Positions 1,741 through 5,992 are shown, counted from the first letter of the stretch. The stretch: 12,356 nt of DNA from Gammaproteobacteria bacterium (GCA_965221955.1 CBDCTA010000010.1:1-12356), one strand, 5' to 3'. The notes: generated from the sequence alone by a model not told the origin. Made by a program: numbers and translations.

Positions 1741-1857
1741 ATGAGTGGAAAACATTTAGAAAATAGCCACACAAATCCAATAGTAACCGCATTTTGGGTA
1801 GTATTTATTATAGCGGCTGCTATTACTGTATTTGTAAATTTTCTTATCAGTTTATAA
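1741..1857 (+). CDS. Small single-pass membrane protein (38 aa), unannotated
   Basis: MSGKHLENSHTNPIVTAFWVVFIIAAAITVFVNFLISL*. An AAGGA Shine-Dalgarno lies just upstream. It fills the gap between the globin and the DsrC-like gene on the same strand. Confidence 0.6.
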   Translation: MSGKHLENSHTNPIVTAFWVVFIIAAAITVFVNFLISL

Positions 1858-1895
1858 CTTTAAATTCTAACTAATCCCAGCCAAAGGCATTTCAA

Positions 1896-2234
1896 ATGTC
1901 TCAGCAGATATCCTCAATGCCTATTAACATTGATAATGAAGGCTATCTAATTGACCCAGAAGAGTGGAATGAGGCATACGCTAGAGTTCTTGCTAGCAAG
2001 GAAGAGCTAGATCTTTCACCTGAGCATTGGAAAATCATTCAATTCATGCGTGATTATTACAATGATCACTTAACCGCTCCAGACTCTCGCTACGTAATTA
2101 AATATATTTCTGATGAGCTTAGTTATGGAAAGCAAGCAAAAAAACAGTTATTTAAATTATTTCCATATGGGTACGTCAAACAAGCTTGCAAAATTGCAGG
2201 AATGAAAAGACCAAGATCGTGGAGCACTGGATAG
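1896..2234 (+). CDS. TusE/DsrC/DsvC family sulfur-relay-like protein lacking the terminal Cys
   Basis: D.EGYL.DP.EW, L...HW.II.F.R.YY and LF.LFPYG..KQACKIAG are DsrC/TusE signatures. The C-terminus is RPRSWSTG instead of KP..CV. Confidence 0.88.
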   Translation: MSQQISSMPINIDNEGYLIDPEEWNEAYARVLASKEELDLSPEHWKIIQFMRDYYNDHLTAPDSRYVIKYISDELSYGKQAKKQLFKLFPYGYVKQACKIAGMKRPRSWSTG

Positions 2235-2268
2235 ATATATAACACAGGTTAAAATAGGAGATGTAAGT

Positions 2269-2298
2269 AATGTCTGCTTTCGGCCAATAGCGGACATT
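2269..2298. repeat. Palindromic site R1 (type A, core CGGCCA)
   Basis: AATGTCTGCT-TTCGGCCAAT-AGCGGACATT. It overlaps the TAA stop (2297-2299) of the 84-aa ORF. Confidence 0.9.
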
Positions 2299-2551
2299 AG
2301 GACTTATTTGTATTTCTATATTCAAACGAATCTAGCATGTAGTAAATACCTCCACCTATCCAGACTAAAGAAACTACCACAAACCAAAATGGATGTTCTT
2401 GAAAACAATGCAACCTATCAAATTCCCATCTTGGCAGTCGAACACATAAATCCTCATATTTATTTATTGAGTCACTAACTAAAATTATGTAGAAACCCAG
2501 AAACAAAACAGACCAAAATAAATTTTTTTTTGGTTTGAATTTGATATTCAT
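2297..2551 (-). CDS. Cassette ORF 4: hypothetical 2-TM membrane protein (84 aa)
   Basis: Two hydrophobic segments flank a loop with two Cys. The ORF is bounded by R1 (stop overlaps it) and R2 (ATG 7 nt away). Confidence 0.7.
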   Translation of the reverse strand: MNIKFKPKKNLFWSVLFLGFYIILVSDSINKYEDLCVRLPRWEFDRLHCFQEHPFWFVVVSLVWIGGGIYYMLDSFEYRNTNKS

Positions 2552-2558
2552 GAATTAT

Positions 2559-2588
2559 TATGTCTACTTTGGGTCGTTTGCGGTCATC
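2559..2588. repeat. Palindromic site R2 (type B, core GGGTCG)
   Basis: TATGTCTACT-TTGGGTCGTT-TGCGGTCATC. Confidence 0.85.
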
Positions 2589-2735
2589 TTATTCAGCAGG
2601 AACAACCTTGTAATATTTACCATCATCTGGAATTTGGAGCGGCATCAAGTCTCTTCCATAATAAATTACAAGTGCTAACCCAATCAAAGCTATACCAAGA
2701 ATTAAAATCCACTTTCTAGTTACTTTAATGCTCAT
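2589..2735 (-). CDS. Cassette ORF 3: 48-aa single-pass membrane protein, absent from the ORF track
   Basis: My manual translation is MSIKVTRKWILILGIALIGLALVIYYGRDLMPLQIPDDGKYYKVVPAE*. The TAA at 2589-2591 directly abuts R2 and the ATG is 15 nt from R3. Confidence 0.65.
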   Translation of the reverse strand: MSIKVTRKWILILGIALIGLALVIYYGRDLMPLQIPDDGKYYKVVPAE

Positions 2736-2750
2736 TTTTTGATGACTAAA

Positions 2751-2780
2751 AATGTACGCTTTGGGTCGTTAGCGGCCATA
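2751..2780. repeat. Palindromic site R3 (type B)
   Basis: AATGTACGCT-TTGGGTCGTT-AGCGGCCATA. Confidence 0.85.
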
Positions 2781-2832
2781 TTAAGTCTGATATTTTGAGA
2801 TTCCAACCAGATTTCCCTTTAGCGGTTTAATT

Positions 2833-2862
2833 TATGTCTGCTTTCGGCCAATAGTGGACATC
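2833..2862. repeat. Palindromic site R4 (type A)
   Basis: TATGTCTGCT-TTCGGCCAAT-AGTGGACATC. Confidence 0.9.
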
Positions 2863-2867
2863 CATAT

Positions 2868-3197
2868 CTAGAAATAACTTAGCCAAATCCCAGAGACAAC
2901 TAACAATATAAAACAAACGATAGCCCTTACAAGGTTCTTTCTTGTGTTTGATGCAATGGCCTTTATATTCTCATCCTTGGAGATCAGAAACTTTTTAGAT
3001 AGTAAATATTGAGACATTTGAAACGACCCTTGCCCAGTATTTATAAGGCTTGGAGGGCAGCCAAATTCTGCCCACGTTTTTACATCATGTTTTTTTAGGT
3101 GGCTTGATAGTTCTCCTGTCCCTTTCCCATATTGATAGGCAAAAATAAAAATCCCAATTAAGAAGGCTAAAAATAGTATGAGAGCAATAGTTTCCAT
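2868..3197 (-). CDS. Cassette ORF 2: 109-aa 2-TM membrane protein, possible remote UspB-like
   Basis: N- and C-terminal TM helices with a soluble middle (L...LKKHD...W...G......GQ....Y.....F....D). The stop is 5 nt from R4 and the ATG is 29 nt from R5. Confidence 0.72.
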   Translation of the reverse strand: METIALILFLAFLIGIFIFAYQYGKGTGELSSHLKKHDVKTWAEFGCPPSLINTGQGSFQMSQYLLSKKFLISKDENIKAIASNTRKNLVRAIVCFILLVVSGIWLSYF

Positions 3198-3226
3198 CCT
3201 AATTAAATAACTTTTAGTTTTGAGCG

Positions 3227-3256
3227 AATGTCCGCTTTGGGTCGGAAGCAGTCATT
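3227..3256. repeat. Palindromic site R5 (type B)
   Basis: AATGTCCGCT-TTGGGTCGGA-AGCAGTCATT. Confidence 0.9.
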
Positions 3257-3299
3257 TTCCTATTGTATGTAATTGATTCCACCCTATTTGATCCTATTT

Positions 3300-3329
3300 T
3301 ATGTCTGCTTTCGGCCAAAAGCAGTCATT
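3300..3329. repeat. Palindromic site R6 (type A)
   Basis: TATGTCTGCT-TTCGGCCAAA-AGCAGTCATT. It contains the TGA stop (3325-3327) of the 97-aa ORF. Confidence 0.9.
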
Positions 3330-3618
3330 CTAATTTCAGCGATATGAGTTTTTTATAAACAAAAATCGTGACAATACAGGTAAAAAATAAAGTGAAAATA
3401 AAAAATAGAGTTTCCGACCTGAAAACGTTTCCAAAAATTGCTCCAAATATCATCCATACAAGTGGAAAACCAATAAAAATATAAAGCGTAGAGTAGAAAT
3501 CACTATATCTTTTTACAAGCTTTGAGTTACAACTAGGACATGTAATTCTGTCTTTATATTTGTCGTCCTCAGTTTTATTTTCCCAAGTAACTTTCAAAGA
3601 ACAATTTGGGCACTTCAT
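3325..3618 (-). CDS. Cassette ORF 1: CxxC-x20-CxxC zinc-ribbon protein with two TM helices (97 aa)
   Basis: CPNC (aa 3-6) and CPSC (aa 27-30) are exactly 20 residues apart and are followed by a long hydrophobic region. This fits the cxxc_20_cxxc family description. Confidence 0.75.
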   Translation of the reverse strand: MKCPNCSLKVTWENKTEDDKYKDRITCPSCNSKLVKRYSDFYSTLYIFIGFPLVWMIFGAIFGNVFRSETLFFIFTLFFTCIVTIFVYKKLISLKLE

Positions 3619-3651
3619 AATGTATTTTTTATAAATAAATCTTGGGAAAAA

Positions 3652-3681
3652 AATGTCTGCTTTGGGTCGTAAGCGGACATT
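3652..3681. repeat. Palindromic site R7 (type B)
   Basis: AATGTCTGCT-TTGGGTCGTA-AGCGGACATT. Confidence 0.9.
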
Positions 3682-3745
3682 CTAATAAAAGAAATATTGA
3701 ATCTGAAGCAACCTCCTTGTTGCACCTCATATTCGCCCATCCATG

Positions 3746-3775
3746 GACTCACACTTTGGGTCGTAAGCGGATATC
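3746..3775. repeat. Degenerate or half site R8 (type B core plus right arm; left arm replaced)
   Basis: GACTCACA-CTTTGGGTCGTAAGCGGA-TATC. Positions 3754-3771 are identical to R7 over 18 bp. Confidence 0.75.
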
Positions 3776-3809
3776 TTAAAATTAGGTATTTCTAATTTTT
3801 TCGCAAAAT

Positions 3810-4544
3810 TCATGACCATTCCATGCTTTCAATATGTCTTCGTAATTGGCCTGCAGTTTTAAATTTTTTTAAAATTAAATTTGATTTTAGGCCACAGCAA
3901 ATATACTTGATTGGATCAGGATGCTTTGCATAGTGCTTAGCTCCACCTAATGACTCATGAAACACTTGAATCAAAGTTAAAATATCAAATCTACGGCTTT
4001 CATGTTTAGGTTCTTTTGCAGAAAACAAATCAACTAATTTCAAATCAAATTCTAAGCCAAATTTATTGACGATGACATTATCGGAATGCAAATCTCCGTG
4101 ATATTCATTCAGGCTATGTATGCACTCGATACCTTGAGTTAATGCATAGAGCAAATGCAATGCTTGATAAGGGGTAAGACGTTTACCGGGAAAGCTTTTA
4201 ATAAATTCAGAAAGCAGTTGTCCCTCAACATACTCAGAGATTAGAACTGTAACTGGAGTTCTTTTAAAAACAAAATTCTCTTTTGTGTGGTACTGAATCA
4301 GTATTGGACATTGTCTGAGTTTATGCAGCTTTTGTGCATTAAACTTTACCGCTCGATCCTTTTCATTGCGATTGGGATAAAATAATTTGGCTGCGCGCTC
4401 AATCCCTGTGCTAATTTCACGTATTTTATACACTTCACCTTCAAACCCGCCACCTAGCTTAGAAAGCACCTCATACTTCTTTGCAATAATGCGACCAGCA
4501 GGTAAATTAAATTCAGTAAATTTTGCTTTGGTAGGTCGAGGCAT
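3810..4544 (-). CDS. Minimal eukaryotic-like (Hanks-type fold) protein kinase
   Basis: Gly-rich loop LGGGFEGEVY, AAK catalytic Lys, SEYVEG hinge, HGDLHSDN catalytic loop, and DLF in place of DFG. Confidence 0.8.
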   Translation of the reverse strand: MPRPTKAKFTEFNLPAGRIIAKKYEVLSKLGGGFEGEVYKIREISTGIERAAKLFYPNRNEKDRAVKFNAQKLHKLRQCPILIQYHTKENFVFKRTPVTVLISEYVEGQLLSEFIKSFPGKRLTPYQALHLLYALTQGIECIHSLNEYHGDLHSDNVIVNKFGLEFDLKLVDLFSAKEPKHESRRFDILTLIQVFHESLGGAKHYAKHPDPIKYICCGLKSNLILKKFKTAGQLRRHIESMEWS

Positions 4545-4574: not shown

Positions 4575-5066
4575 TTATTTTTTTGGATAATCAAAATCCA
4601 AAAGCTTACCTGAATGTTCTGTTATGGATTCCCAACTATTTATATCAAACTGAATCTGTGCAATTGCGCAGGTCGGCATATTATCTATTTCAGCGTTAGA
4701 TAGATAGTTGCATAAAACCGTAAAGCCTGGATTATGACCAACTAACATCACACGATGTAAATTATCGTCCAAACCTGCAACCAGGTCTATTAATGTATTC
4801 AAACTTGCTTCATAAATTTTTTCATTACGATCAACCTTTTGAATATTAAATTCAATTTCACTTGCAATAAATTCTGCAGTGGTAATCGCTCTCACAGCAG
4901 GGCTTGAAATAATACTGTCCACCAAATAATTTTCATCAGCAAGGCGCTTACCCATCTCTGGCGCATTTTTTAACCCTCGGCTATTTAAAGGCCGCTCGAA
5001 ATCGCTCAAGTTCGCATCGTTCCAGCTTGACTTAGCATGGCGCACTAAAGTTAATACACGTTTCAT
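4575..5066 (-). CDS. sixA: SixA-like phosphohistidine phosphatase (histidine phosphatase superfamily)
   Basis: LVRHAKSSW, D.ERPL..RG, SSPA.RA..TA and LVGHNPG motifs. I prefer the ATG at 5066 over the TTG at 5072. Confidence 0.85.
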   Translation of the reverse strand: MKRVLTLVRHAKSSWNDANLSDFERPLNSRGLKNAPEMGKRLADENYLVDSIISSPAVRAITTAEFIASEIEFNIQKVDRNEKIYEASLNTLIDLVAGLDDNLHRVMLVGHNPGFTVLCNYLSNAEIDNMPTCAIAQIQFDINSWESITEHSGKLLDFDYPKK

Positions 5067-5068
5067 CT

Positions 5069-5992
5069 TCAAATATCTAGCTTATTGGGACGTAATTTTA
5101 ACGTCATACAGCGCCCCACAAAAAATAACCAAATGAACAAAACACAAGCTAATCCAAACATGGAAGCAAAATCTCTAAATCGAGTATGTACATGATACCG
5201 CTCAACTTGAATGGTGTGATTGTCAGTAAATATTCCTTGTAGTGAAATCAGCGAACTACTCTCTACTTCAGCATCAAAACCTTGCAAGTTTATGATTTCA
5301 CCGTACGAAGTTTTAATTTTATGCTCGTTATAAGTTTGTAAATAAATATTTCTATCAATTTCAATCTTTTTGCCTGTTCTATTTTCCAAATCTTTTAATG
5401 TTGCGATGAAGTGATTGTCCGCAGCATATACAGATTGAGTAAAAACAACTGGCGACATTAACCAAGCGGATAGCAAAACGGCACTCAAAATAATAGTTTT
5501 GATCGATATATTAAATTCTTCGCAATTTGCTTGAATTGACTTTTTGAAATTAAAAATAAAATAAATTAAACCTAAAATAGTTAAGACATAAGTTGCAAAA
5601 CTCTCTGGCCAAAAGAGATCAAACCTTAGTAACTCCCAATTTACTGGAGCCAATAATTGCGCACCATTGGCCCATTTGATTTGTGTCGCATCTAATAATA
5701 AATGCAACAAAGACCCAATCAACAAAATAATAAAAACTTTACTACGTTGTTTGGCCAACATAGAAAAGCTCATGCATAGCAAAATGCAAAATAAAAGTGA
5801 TGATTGTGTAATGCAGTACGCACGCAGATCATATAAGTCTATGGAGAGAGGTAACTTTTTAATAATACGTTGCACTATCCAAGGTAAATCAGGAATTACA
5901 CAAGCTAGATAAATCCATTTAAAATCTGCATGTGTAAAAACTGTCCTCGTGGATAGACCATTTATAGCAAAATGTGCAATCGTGTTTGGCAT
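5069..5992 (-). CDS. Membrane-bound metal-dependent hydrolase (YdjM-like) with C-terminal extension
   Basis: N-terminal His (PNTIAH), PDLPW and HLLLD motifs, multiple TM helices, and a soluble beta-rich segment before the last TM. Confidence 0.65.
   Translation of the reverse strand: MPNTIAHFAINGLSTRTVFTHADFKWIYLACVIPDLPWIVQRIIKKLPLSIDLYDLRAYCITQSSLLFCILLCMSFSMLAKQRSKVFIILLIGSLLHLLLDATQIKWANGAQLLAPVNWELLRFDLFWPESFATYVLTILGLIYFIFNFKKSIQANCEEFNISIKTIILSAVLLSAWLMSPVVFTQSVYAADNHFIATLKDLENRTGKKIEIDRNIYLQTYNEHKIKTSYGEIINLQGFDAEVESSSLISLQGIFTDNHTIQVERYHVHTRFRDFASMFGLACVLFIWLFFVGRCMTLKLRPNKLDI

Follow-up and report, generated by a model that had tools for sequence, protein, structure and literature searches.

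Four short open reading frames (ORFs) lie between two convergent genes in contig CBDCTA010000010.1 of a gammaproteobacterial genome assembly (GCA_965221955.1), and each is bracketed by short palindromic sequences. What are these palindromes, and are they the boundaries of exchangeable genes? The window analyzed here is the whole contig (12,356 nucleotides; C10 in our numbering), and the assembly, which we call G000, comprises 2.69 Mb in 29 contigs, with a GC content of 38.6% and a completeness of 96.6%. A preliminary description of the window had proposed a gene cassette array whose sites are neither attC nor dif. We find that positions 2270–3809 are a four-cassette array belonging to a widespread family of site-bounded single-gene units. 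The family consists of 28 bp sites of two types that bracket single genes and are found genome-wide and across phyla, and the sites are points of cassette gain, loss, and replacement.

Palindromic Sites of Two Types Delimit the Array

The window was searched for sequences with up to five mismatches to ATGTCYGCTTTSGGYCRWWAGCRGWCAT. It contains exactly seven 28 bp imperfect palindromes, with 0–2 mismatches each (starting at 2270, 2560, 2752, 2834, 3228, 3301, and 3653), and no further copy was found elsewhere in its 12,356 bases at this threshold, in agreement with the earlier statement that the palindromes are confined to the array. The preliminary description had counted eight related palindromes of a single family. 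Seven of these are full sites, and the eighth (R8) is a half-site in which the center and one arm are retained and the other arm is replaced. The single family was also corrected to two types, distinguished by their centers: type A (center CGGCCA; starts 2270, 2834, and 3301) and type B (center GGGTCG; starts 2560, 2752, 3228, and 3653). The sites and the ORFs between them are as follows.

2270..2297, plus strand: site R1, type A, the terminal array site; 0 mismatches; 3′ of the ORF84 stop codon in the ORF sense
2297..2551, minus strand: ORF84, 84 aa, two hydrophobic segments; equal or longer ORFs in 10/2000 shuffles; no Pfam match
2560..2587, plus strand: site R2, type B-like; stands alone between ORF48 and ORF84, unpaired with an A site; 2 mismatches
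2589..2735, minus strand: ORF48, 48 aa, putatively coding, one hydrophobic segment; 213/2000 shuffles reach its length
2752..2779, plus strand: site R3, type B, upstream of ORF48 in the ORF sense; 2 mismatches
2834..2861, plus strand: site R4, type A; 82 nt start to start from R3, forming a B-spacer-A junction unit
2868..3197, minus strand: ORF109, 109 aa, N- and C-terminal hydrophobic segments; equal or longer ORFs in 3/2000 shuffles
3228..3255, plus strand: site R5, type B; 1 mismatch
3301..3328, plus strand: site R6, type A; 0 mismatches; 73 nt start to start from R5; overlaps the ORF97 stop codon
3325..3618, minus strand: ORF97, 97 aa, an N-terminal zinc-ribbon-like CxxC...CxxC motif and two hydrophobic segments; 4/2000 shuffles
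3653..3680, plus strand: site R7, type B, leader-proximal; the C10 and C29 arrays part exactly at its ORF-side edge
3747..3774, plus strand: site R8, a degenerate half-site of type B that bounds the leader on its outer side; 6 mismatches

The lengths of the ORFs were compared with those in 2000 mononucleotide shuffles, and hydrophobic segments were identified by a simple hydropathy count. ORF84, ORF109, and ORF97 exceed the length expected by chance; ORF48 is not significant on its own, because its length is reached so often in the shuffles. The four minus-strand ORFs with hydrophobic segments are thus as first described, and so is their tight fit to the sites: stop codons overlap the downstream site or sit 1–6 nt from it, and ATG codons lie 8–34 nt from the upstream site. 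The block as a whole is placed, as noted before, between the convergent ends of a DsrC-like gene (2234) and a protein kinase gene (3810). The junction unit at 2751–2861 is found again in many loci and genomes at 76%–86% identity, and the unit at 3227–3329 (R5-spacer-R6) is likewise recurrent across many genomes. No Rfam family matched positions 1800–4000 at E values up to 1.

Cassettes Are Gained, Lost, and Replaced at the Sites

The test that had been named for a cassette array was the comparison of strains for cassette differences with breakpoints at the sites, and the assembly itself supplies two such comparisons. Contig C10, which the window spans completely, and C29:123675–138671 are two alleles of one region. 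Their flanks are 98.7% and 99.7% identical, whereas between the flanks C10 has 1.4 kb with four ORFs and C29 has an unrelated 4.0 kb with ten sites. The divergence begins exactly at the ORF-side edge of R7, on the ORF-upstream side. (C29, which carries the second allele, is a 669 kb contig.) At a second allelic pair, C14/C23, the flanks and one cassette are common to both alleles and all other cassettes differ; one single-cassette insertion at this locus duplicates a site, and its outer arms fit a reciprocal exchange within the site center. These two pairs of allelic contigs indicate that the assembly mixes at least two strains, which the assembler split at the arrays.

Over all allelic contig pairs of the assembly there are 28 internal ends of homology, 12 of which come from the C10/C29 and C14/C23 loci. 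All 12 lie within 12 nt of a site, and 11 lie within 10 nt (chance, ~1%); the remaining 16 are at unrelated 1–5 kb repeats. Three cassettes recur in other contexts at 78%–97% identity, with homology that spans from outer edge to outer edge of the sites, and single cassettes of the array on C5 are found again in relatives. The kinase gene that borders the array was found in all 14 congeners, and the adjacent locus varies among relatives: it is empty in G003, where the convergent stop codons overlap, it holds one degenerate solo site in G013 and A, two ORFs, B, and a leader in G010, and it has other contents in G014 and G011. We conclude that the sites are points of cassette gain, loss, and replacement; the allele comparison supports the view that the block is a site-delimited cassette array. 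One contig from public data (X1 record 3, depth 2.6) retains the ORF97 cassette, and where the 365 nt ORF109 interval would stand it has 367 different nucleotides, which is a weak hint of cassette replacement.

The Site Family Is Found Genome-Wide and across Phyla

An exact 18 nt core of the site matches G000 83 times, and a reversed-pattern control matches it 0 times. At up to five mismatches the genome has 178 sites (84 A, 92 B, and 2 untyped) in 47 clusters, with arrays of up to 24 sites. All sites of one array point in the same direction, with A and B in alternation and a start-to-start distance from B to A that is mostly 73 or 83 nt. The main ORF runs opposite to the orientation of the sites in 80 of 90 co-oriented intervals, and so the order in the ORF sense is B′, ORF, A′, spacer, B′, ORF, A′, with neighboring units joined through a 45–55 nt spacer.

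In a sample of 41 genomes of the class, 21 have the strict core, among them 13 of the 14 congeners and members of five further genera of the family and of a second family. The congener G013 (2.5 Mb) has 1 site at up to three mismatches, compared with 166 in G010 and 88 in G014, and by this count it looks like a lineage that lost the site family and may serve as a natural control in the search for a partner protein. G013 also carries the degenerate solo site at the kinase locus (L138:6557–6591 and G013:C7:89482–89581 are example loci) and three copies of the leader module described below.

The full 28 nt pattern occurs in at least 117 stretches of a species-level genome collection. Among the matches listed are many metagenome-assembled genomes (MAGs) of Pseudolabrys and other Xanthobacteraceae and Hyphomicrobiales, as well as Sphingomonas, Rhizobium, Maricaulaceae, Lysobacter soli, Thiotrichales, a betaproteobacterium, Udaeobacter, Binatia, and Flavobacteriales; among the same listed matches, the exact 28-mer thus occurs in Alpha-, Beta-, and Gammaproteobacteria and in other phyla, in genomes with GC contents from 38% to 65%. 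In distant genomes the B-to-A pairs are head-to-tail and 45 or 91 nt apart. Among the proteins encoded near sites in distant taxa, an ordinary ABC substrate-binding protein recurs most often, and two Pfam-verified genes of this kind form tight A-ORF-B units. The junction unit has no match in plasmid and phage collections.

A third site type, with the same arms and the center ACCCCCG, was also seen. It follows a B site across a conserved 17 nt spacer with TGCAGTGCA, and such composites occur in Alphaproteobacteria-like contigs (L060:1219–2118, L146:2627–2720, L148, L153, and L147).

The abundance of the sites brings in a serious rival explanation: that they are elements like the repetitive extragenic palindromic (REP) sequences and bacterial interspersed mosaic elements (BIMEs), with no dedicated recombinase and a role in expression or chromosome biology, and reshuffled by homologous recombination. 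They could then act as a 3′ stem-loop after a gene, as a promoter in the spacer, and as a 5′ stem-loop or operator at the start of the transcript, and cassette differences would be secondary, arising through recombination by RecA/AddAB or through replication slippage between repeats of 28 bp or ~100 nt after DNA uptake. We consider this explanation possible, although we are inclined to doubt it. Like REPs, the sites are dispersed, high-copy extragenic palindromes (178 copies in G000) near the ends of ORFs. The CGTC-tagged REPs, some of which have TGTC, offer a particular parallel: as described in the text of PMC3733652, they are mostly from Alphaproteobacteria, cross phyla, lack a transposase, and lie no more than 20 bp from the 3′ ends of ORFs.

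Arm Sequences Suggest Two Protein Half-Sites

Is the palindrome recognized as a hairpin or as duplex DNA? No compensatory changes were found between paired arm positions among the A and B sites of G000. In B sites, pair 4-25 is T.T in 50/84 and pair 6-23 is C.A in 35/84, in both cases uncompensated, and in A sites pair 6-23 is T.G in 26/76. The single strands of the 28-mers fold weakly (−1 to −7.7 kcal/mol). Because the arms vary independently and the folds are weak, recognition of the duplex by a dimer fits better than selection for a hairpin, and the site sequences suggest two protein half-sites around an asymmetric center rather than a hairpin. In Alphaproteobacteria the centers of A and B differ by one base (GGGCCA and GGGTCA) and have the same orientation, which makes A and B direct and probably heterospecific variants of one site.

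These properties weigh against a REP-like element. Besides systematic mismatches in place of stem covariation, and weak folds with terminator-like matches at the level of chance, the sites form head-to-tail pairs, unlike the inverted pairs of BIMEs, of REP doublets forming hairpins (REPINs), and of head-to-head dimers. Around ORFs there is a strict alternation of the two site types, and an identical 28-mer over phyla and GC contents would need a conserved sequence-specific partner. The clean insertion of a single cassette with duplication of a site, as well as the site-bounded cassette copies, are atypical of REPs. Moreover, 28 bp is a marginal length for RecA-dependent exchange.

The A′-spacer-B′ composite (73–119 nt) might instead be read as one attC, so that the arrays would be atypical clusters of attC sites lacking integron integrases (CALINs), with IntI encoded elsewhere or in other hosts. 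The layout is what one would expect of such clusters, in that an ORF is followed by an imperfectly symmetric element of ~100 nt and soon afterward by the next ORF start, the arrays are co-oriented (80/90 intervals, as for attC-type cassettes), the ORFs are mostly orphans, and the length of the spacer differs by lineage, like that of the attC center. The consensus outer arms of A′ and B′ are also complementary to each other, yet each 28-mer is complementary to itself as well. The attC site, one imperfect palindrome of about 57–141 bp per cassette with the fold of a single hairpin, is defined by outer boxes RYYYAAC...GTTRRRY, with AAC/GTT at the crossover. Here, the outer ends of both the single sites and the composites read ATGTC...GACAT and lack AAC/GTT triplets. 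ORFs are also separated by single A or B sites, such as R2, and the final cassette closes with A′ alone. Two composites were tried for folding (101 and 110 nt), and one is more stable than its shuffles (z −3.3) whereas the other is no better than them (z +0.38). Finally, G000 has no integron integrase: the models TIGR02249 and NF011946 score 130 bits (cut-off 265) and 98 bits (cut-off 435), respectively, far below their cut-offs. We regard the CALIN explanation as highly improbable.

Candidate Recombinases

A search of G000 with PF00589 returned four genes: XerD twice, XerC, and one phage-type integrase. XerD (in the xerD-dsbC locus) is found twice because of allelic contigs (C23 and C14), and XerC is on C22; the matches to TIGR02225 (402 bits, XerD) and TIGR02224 (367 bits, XerC) are both above the cut-offs. 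Could the sites be Xer substrates? The pdif modules of Acinetobacter plasmids are Xer-dependent and have flanking sites in opposite orientation. Several features fit recombination by the host XerC/XerD in the manner of these modules: both proteins are present in G000, they are the only recombinases common to all of the site-bearing genomes examined, the 28 bp sites can be read as 11-6-11, their arms differ systematically, as would suit a heterodimer, and arrays adjoin xerD in G000 and G010. However, only 8–9 of the 28 positions of an A or B site agree with the dif consensus, whereas the genome's own single, canonical dif-like site (C4:59807–59834) agrees with it at 24. The unlikeness to dif, like the lack of attC ends, is as had been stated at the outset. 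They are direct rather than alternating in orientation, the junction unit is without plasmid matches, and G013 encodes XerC and XerD yet has only 1 site. The adjacency to xerD is a conserved locus of the genus, seen in G000 and G010 and not in G019. We rejected the Xer proteins as candidates on these grounds, and there is very little chance that the sites are their substrates.

Legionella and Coxiellaceae lack XerC/D and use XerL, according to PMC9765430. As G000 has XerC, XerD, and a dif-like site, its dimer resolution differs from theirs, although a related MAG (L019) is labeled Coxiellaceae.

The preliminary description had also envisaged an HUH nuclease or a REP-associated tyrosine transposase (RAYT) acting in trans, and the sites could accordingly be read as the ends of single-strand mobile units of the HUH, IS200/IS605, or RAYT type, with A′ and B′ forming same-strand hairpins on the lagging-strand template. 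The left and right end hairpins of IS200/IS605 elements have the same polarity, as A and B do at the two ends of a unit, and the orientation of the sites flips along the closed chromosome of G019 and around dif on C4 of G000. This flipping has no excess over gene orientation: the bias of the clusters (28/41) does not exceed the 62% strand bias of the genes, and we have no sign of replication-coupled orientation beyond it. Hairpin covariation is absent, as described above, and PF01797, the family of RAYT and IS200-type Y1 transposases, has 0 matches in G000 and in five relatives (G019, G010, G014, G004, and G013; three of the five are closed genomes), whereas control genomes matched. It would be most surprising if the sites proved to be HUH substrates, and that part of the original proposal did not hold up.

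A better candidate was found beside an array in G019. This array is bracketed by two paralogous, divergent tyrosine recombinases of ~378 aa (47% identical to each other; PF00589, 39–54 bits), one of which is transcribed divergently from a position 176 nt upstream of the array, and the other of which starts 9 nt past the terminal A site. In G002 an intact 378-aa copy ends 8 nt from a B site. The family was detected in 10 of the 21 motif-bearing genomes and gave one weak match in the 20 motif-free genomes. The matches in G011 are weak (25%–27% identity), the G004 copy is split over frames, and G000, G001, G003, G005, G007, and G021 have only fragments or pieces with stop codons; those of G000, at C4:24722–25062 and C4:43252–43485, have no adjoining site. 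A large protein collection holds 15 clusters of the family, with named sources that are all similar gammaproteobacterial MAGs, and among proteins of solved structure the closest in sequence is XerC-like (E = 1.3e-6). We consider this family the best enzyme candidate in this lineage, as judged from gene position and distribution.

Two other groups of recombinases were examined and rejected. A large serine recombinase of G000 (C26:85307–86926; L141, 540 aa) has strong matches in only 4 of the 21 motif-bearing genomes, and it adjoins DUF2924 and terminase genes, which marks it as a prophage integrase. Small tyrosine recombinases (~200–235 aa) lie near sites in 3/80 genome loci and in 4/13 viral contigs, and G000 has none.

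Some of these recombinase genes nevertheless occur next to sites in viral and other contigs. Homologs of the serine recombinase on IMG/VR contigs (L147, L146, and L142) adjoin sites. On L147 a distance of ~105 nt separates the end of the gene from a B site, and near the opposite end of the contig there is an inverted composite of B and the third site type. From these positions, the sites may be attachment targets for a group of phages with serine recombinases. Genes for the ~200–235-aa tyrosine recombinases, of at least two subfamilies, adjoin the composites of B and the third site type, and in L060 inverted composites flank the gene. Separately, ~1.93–2.03 Mb of G019:C1 (L156) holds about ten tyrosine recombinase genes in 100 kb, including identical copies of a 375-aa type that is also present at 1257606; this cluster looks like a multicopy mobile element or an integrase island.

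Predicted Promoters and a Conserved Leader Module

In the preliminary description the cassettes were promoterless. A generic scan of the region for promoters and terminators gave numbers close to expectation (7 versus 6.4 and 2 versus 1.1, respectively). When the position relative to the sites was fixed, and at least 4/6 matches were required in both hexamers, a predicted promoter was found at 39/84 B sites, 3/76 A sites, and 2% of shifted-anchor controls. The commonest predicted hexamers next to B are TTGGAA and TAAAAT, with a −10 element that overlaps the first two bases of B′. Two B sites of the window, at the leader and at the R3-R4 spacer, are among those abutted by such a sequence.

2778..2806, minus strand: predicted sigma-70-like promoter in the R3-R4 spacer, directed toward ORF48; TTGGAA, 17 nt, TAATAT; 4/6 per hexamer; the −10 overlaps the first two bases of R3
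3679..3707, minus strand: predicted sigma-70-like leader promoter, directed into the array; TTCAGA, 17 nt, TAGAAT; 9/12; abuts R7
3681..3746, minus strand: conserved leader module with the hairpin GCAAC-AAGGAG-GTTGC (3708–3723); 13 copies in G000

Because promoter-like sequence has a fixed place at B′, the cassettes are probably not promoterless, contrary to the earlier claim, and each cassette is probably expressed on its own.

The leader (~125 nt) comprises a half-site, the conserved hairpin module, the promoter-like sequence, and a B′ site. The 13 copies (for example, at C23:10753–10853, C23:23304–23385, and C17:16413–16536) retain the predicted −10 TA[GA]AAT and the sequence TCAGAT, and the array on C23 has one leader at each end, directed inward. 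The module of ~75 nt always lies between a half-site (left arm and center) and an intact site, with an identical half-site/module junction in all copies; it has a conserved short ATG...TGA frame and shows compensatory changes at two stem positions. It is specific to the genus, being present in 13/14 congeners, including G013, and it was not found in the other genera searched or matched by Rfam. A promoter or operator, a small RNA, and an accessory recombination sequence are candidate roles.

A Tentative Model and Its Main Rival

How might single genes be exchanged at these sites? The likeliest mechanism, which we propose tentatively, is conservative site-specific recombination in which an enzyme acting in trans works on heterospecific core sites; we judge this model slightly more apt to fail than to hold. 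The enzyme would be a dimer, probably a tyrosine recombinase, that binds both arms of the site and exchanges strands in its asymmetric center. As the centers of A and B differ, the two types would be heterospecific, A recombining with A and B with B. With such pairing, a cassette could be inserted with duplication of a site, an ORF could be excised together with its junction, and a cassette lying between A and B could be replaced, while single ORFs would be protected against deletion by adjacent sites. Sigma-70-like promoters in the spacers and the leader, with the −10 against B′, would drive individual cassettes.

Several observations weigh against this model. At the terminal site R1, the C10 and C29 alleles diverge ~12 nt outside the site, and their A variants differ. 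Because all sites resemble each other, a crossover within a site cannot be located from the ends of BLAST alignments, and the same picture of breakpoints would result if the 28-mers underwent homologous recombination. No excision junctions or circles were seen: in four public runs (Logan contigs), the joints listed have sides of 24–32 nt and derive from other arrays that match only the 28-mers, and they are thus no evidence for excision or circles. No recombinase family correlates with the sites. In the closed genome G010, XerC, XerD, and a single phage-type integrase are the only tyrosine recombinases. Intact copies of the 378-aa family are limited to G019 and G002, and searches of the site-rich genomes G010, G014, and G015 and of five distant motif-bearing genomes gave no member of the family. 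Different recombinase families lie near sites in different lineages, so the sites may be common integration targets, and recombinases may be found near them as would be expected of mere intergenic landmarks or popular targets. The rule on ORF orientation holds less well in distant genomes (49 intervals versus 27), and 46 more intervals there have no dominant ORF. Finally, the preliminary description had set a motif scattered genome-wide in ordinary intergenic positions against a cassette system, and such scatter was found in part: the sites of G000 are spread over 47 clusters, and five distant alpha- and betaproteobacterial genomes have 30–289 strict copies each, often between ordinary genes.

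The genome-wide scatter keeps the REP-like explanation alive, as do the fixed promoter-like sequence that abuts B′ and the lack of a correlated recombinase. The ordinary functions of cassette genes (HSP20, OsmC, an Na+/H+ exchanger, and an M48 peptidase), the homologs that some of them have in the nearly site-free G013, and the presence of AddA in G000 also speak for this explanation. The proposal that the array is a gene-capture system served by a different recombinase or an HUH enzyme therefore stands in one part: turnover is bounded by the sites, whereas no HUH/RAYT gene was found in G000 or in five relatives and no recombinase gene could be tied to the sites.

A more far-reaching form of the recombination model is that the sites define a distinct, cross-phylum cassette system, in which single genes are held between heterospecific A and B sites and moved by a sequence-specific recombinase of their own. 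Such a system would be spread over dozens of chromosomal loci in each genome, where integrons have a single platform, and it would amount to a naturally occurring form of recombinase-mediated cassette exchange (RMCE). Its promoter spacers and leader modules would be specific to lineages, and genomes like G000 would be holders of orphan arrays, as CALINs are for integrons. We think it rather unlikely that the family is distinct to this degree.

Relationship to Known Systems

The architecture of the arrays is integron-like or pdif-like, and their copy number is REP-like. As in integrons and CALINs, the ORFs are co-oriented, mostly single, small, and often orphan, each with a boundary resembling a recombination site; the contents are hypervariable among close strains and the flanks constant; and a promoter-like leader lies at one end. 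The tyrosine recombinase gene that is divergent and upstream of the array in G019 adds to the likeness. In contrast to integrons, there is neither IntI nor an AAC/GTT core triplet, each junction has two discrete 28 bp sites rather than one folded attC, single sites may separate ORFs, there are ~47 loci per genome instead of one platform, and the cassettes have predicted promoters of their own. Moreover, attC is conserved in structure, whereas this site family is conserved in sequence across phyla.

The pdif modules are similar in their 28 bp sites with two arms and a 6 nt center, in the occurrence of modules of one to a few genes in varied contexts, and in the absence of a dedicated recombinase gene beside the modules. 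The sites described here differ in being unlike dif, direct, chromosomal, dispersed, and of two center types.

RMCE with heterospecific lox or FRT sites is an engineering method in which two sites have identical arms and different centers, and it permits replacement and blocks deletion between the flanking sites. The two-type arrangement resembles it in this respect, with the difference that RMCE is artificial and that the arrangement here is natural, its function being proposed from the sequences.

The sites also have features of REP elements, and the start of their stem, AT..CCGC, resembles the dRS3-type stem. REPs, BIMEs, and REPINs share with the sites their short, imperfectly palindromic form, their tens to hundreds of copies per genome, and their extragenic, often paired positions near the 3′ ends of ORFs (PMC3733652, PMC2817692). 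The CGTC REPs are, in addition, transposase-less, dominated by Alphaproteobacteria, and cross-phylum, and the text of PMC3733652 gives them an 8–9 bp stem, a 4–5 nt loop, a CCA tail, and a tag outside the stem. The sites differ from what that text describes: no GTAG/CGTC tag or CCA tail is conserved in the site flanks, TGTC lies inside the paired arm, and the asymmetric center is 12 nt long. They also differ in their head-to-tail pairs of two types, in the lack of a RAYT and of stem covariation, and in bracketing individual ORFs with cassette turnover at the sites. Br-REP1 and Br-REP2 of Bradyrhizobium, as given in the texts consulted, have sequences different from the 28 bp sites. No description of the site family was found in the literature searched, the figures and supplements of which were outside our reach; the consensus figures of PMC3733652 might hold a relative. 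The four 14 nt site cores do not occur in this literature, and 11-mers appear only in unrelated papers.

If the sites are true recombination sites, they would provide bacteria with a second, integron-independent route by which single genes can be stocked and swapped, one that would extend through the Alpha-, Beta-, and Gammaproteobacteria of soil and water to other groups as well, and they would constitute a new pair of recombinase and site with built-in heterospecific sites. They would also account for hypervariable loci at the strain level that break metagenome assemblies, two of which were assembled twice here. The system would escape current tools, since IntegronFinder depends on attC or IntI and surveys for REPs seek GTAG/CGTC tags. 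Even if the elements are REP-like, a 28-mer that crosses phyla and GC contents without a known partner protein, and that is accompanied by fixed promoter spacers and a structured leader module, is undescribed in the portions of the papers searched.

Cassette Genes and Flanking Genes

The 36 cassette ORFs of the two largest arrays and the window are mutually unrelated. Their Pfam matches, each family occurring once, include M48 and M23 peptidases, an Na+/H+ exchanger, HSP20, globin, OsmC, HAD hydrolase, GNAT, TPR/Sel1, Rieske, and Macro, and none of the 36 matches a recombinase family in Pfam. ORF97 has three distant homologs of similar length (best E = 7.6e-14) among 1.84 billion representatives searched, and its matches to zinc-ribbon families of Pfam are weak and below the curated cut-offs; a word-indexed search with ORF109 and ORF97 returned nothing besides the queries themselves. 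The genes that flank the array are as follows.

1896..2234, plus strand: DsrC/TusE-like gene, left flank; PF04358, E = 5.7e-34; flank 98.7% identical in the C29 allele
3810..4544, minus strand: Ser/Thr protein kinase gene, right flank; PF00069, E = 6.1e-15; flank 99.7% identical in the C29 allele

Beyond the kinase gene, a gene of the histidine phosphatase family (window positions 4575–5072) is a single ORF of 165 aa in the window and two ORFs of 75 and 90 aa in the C29 allele, and this split suggests a frameshift or an assembly error in C29.

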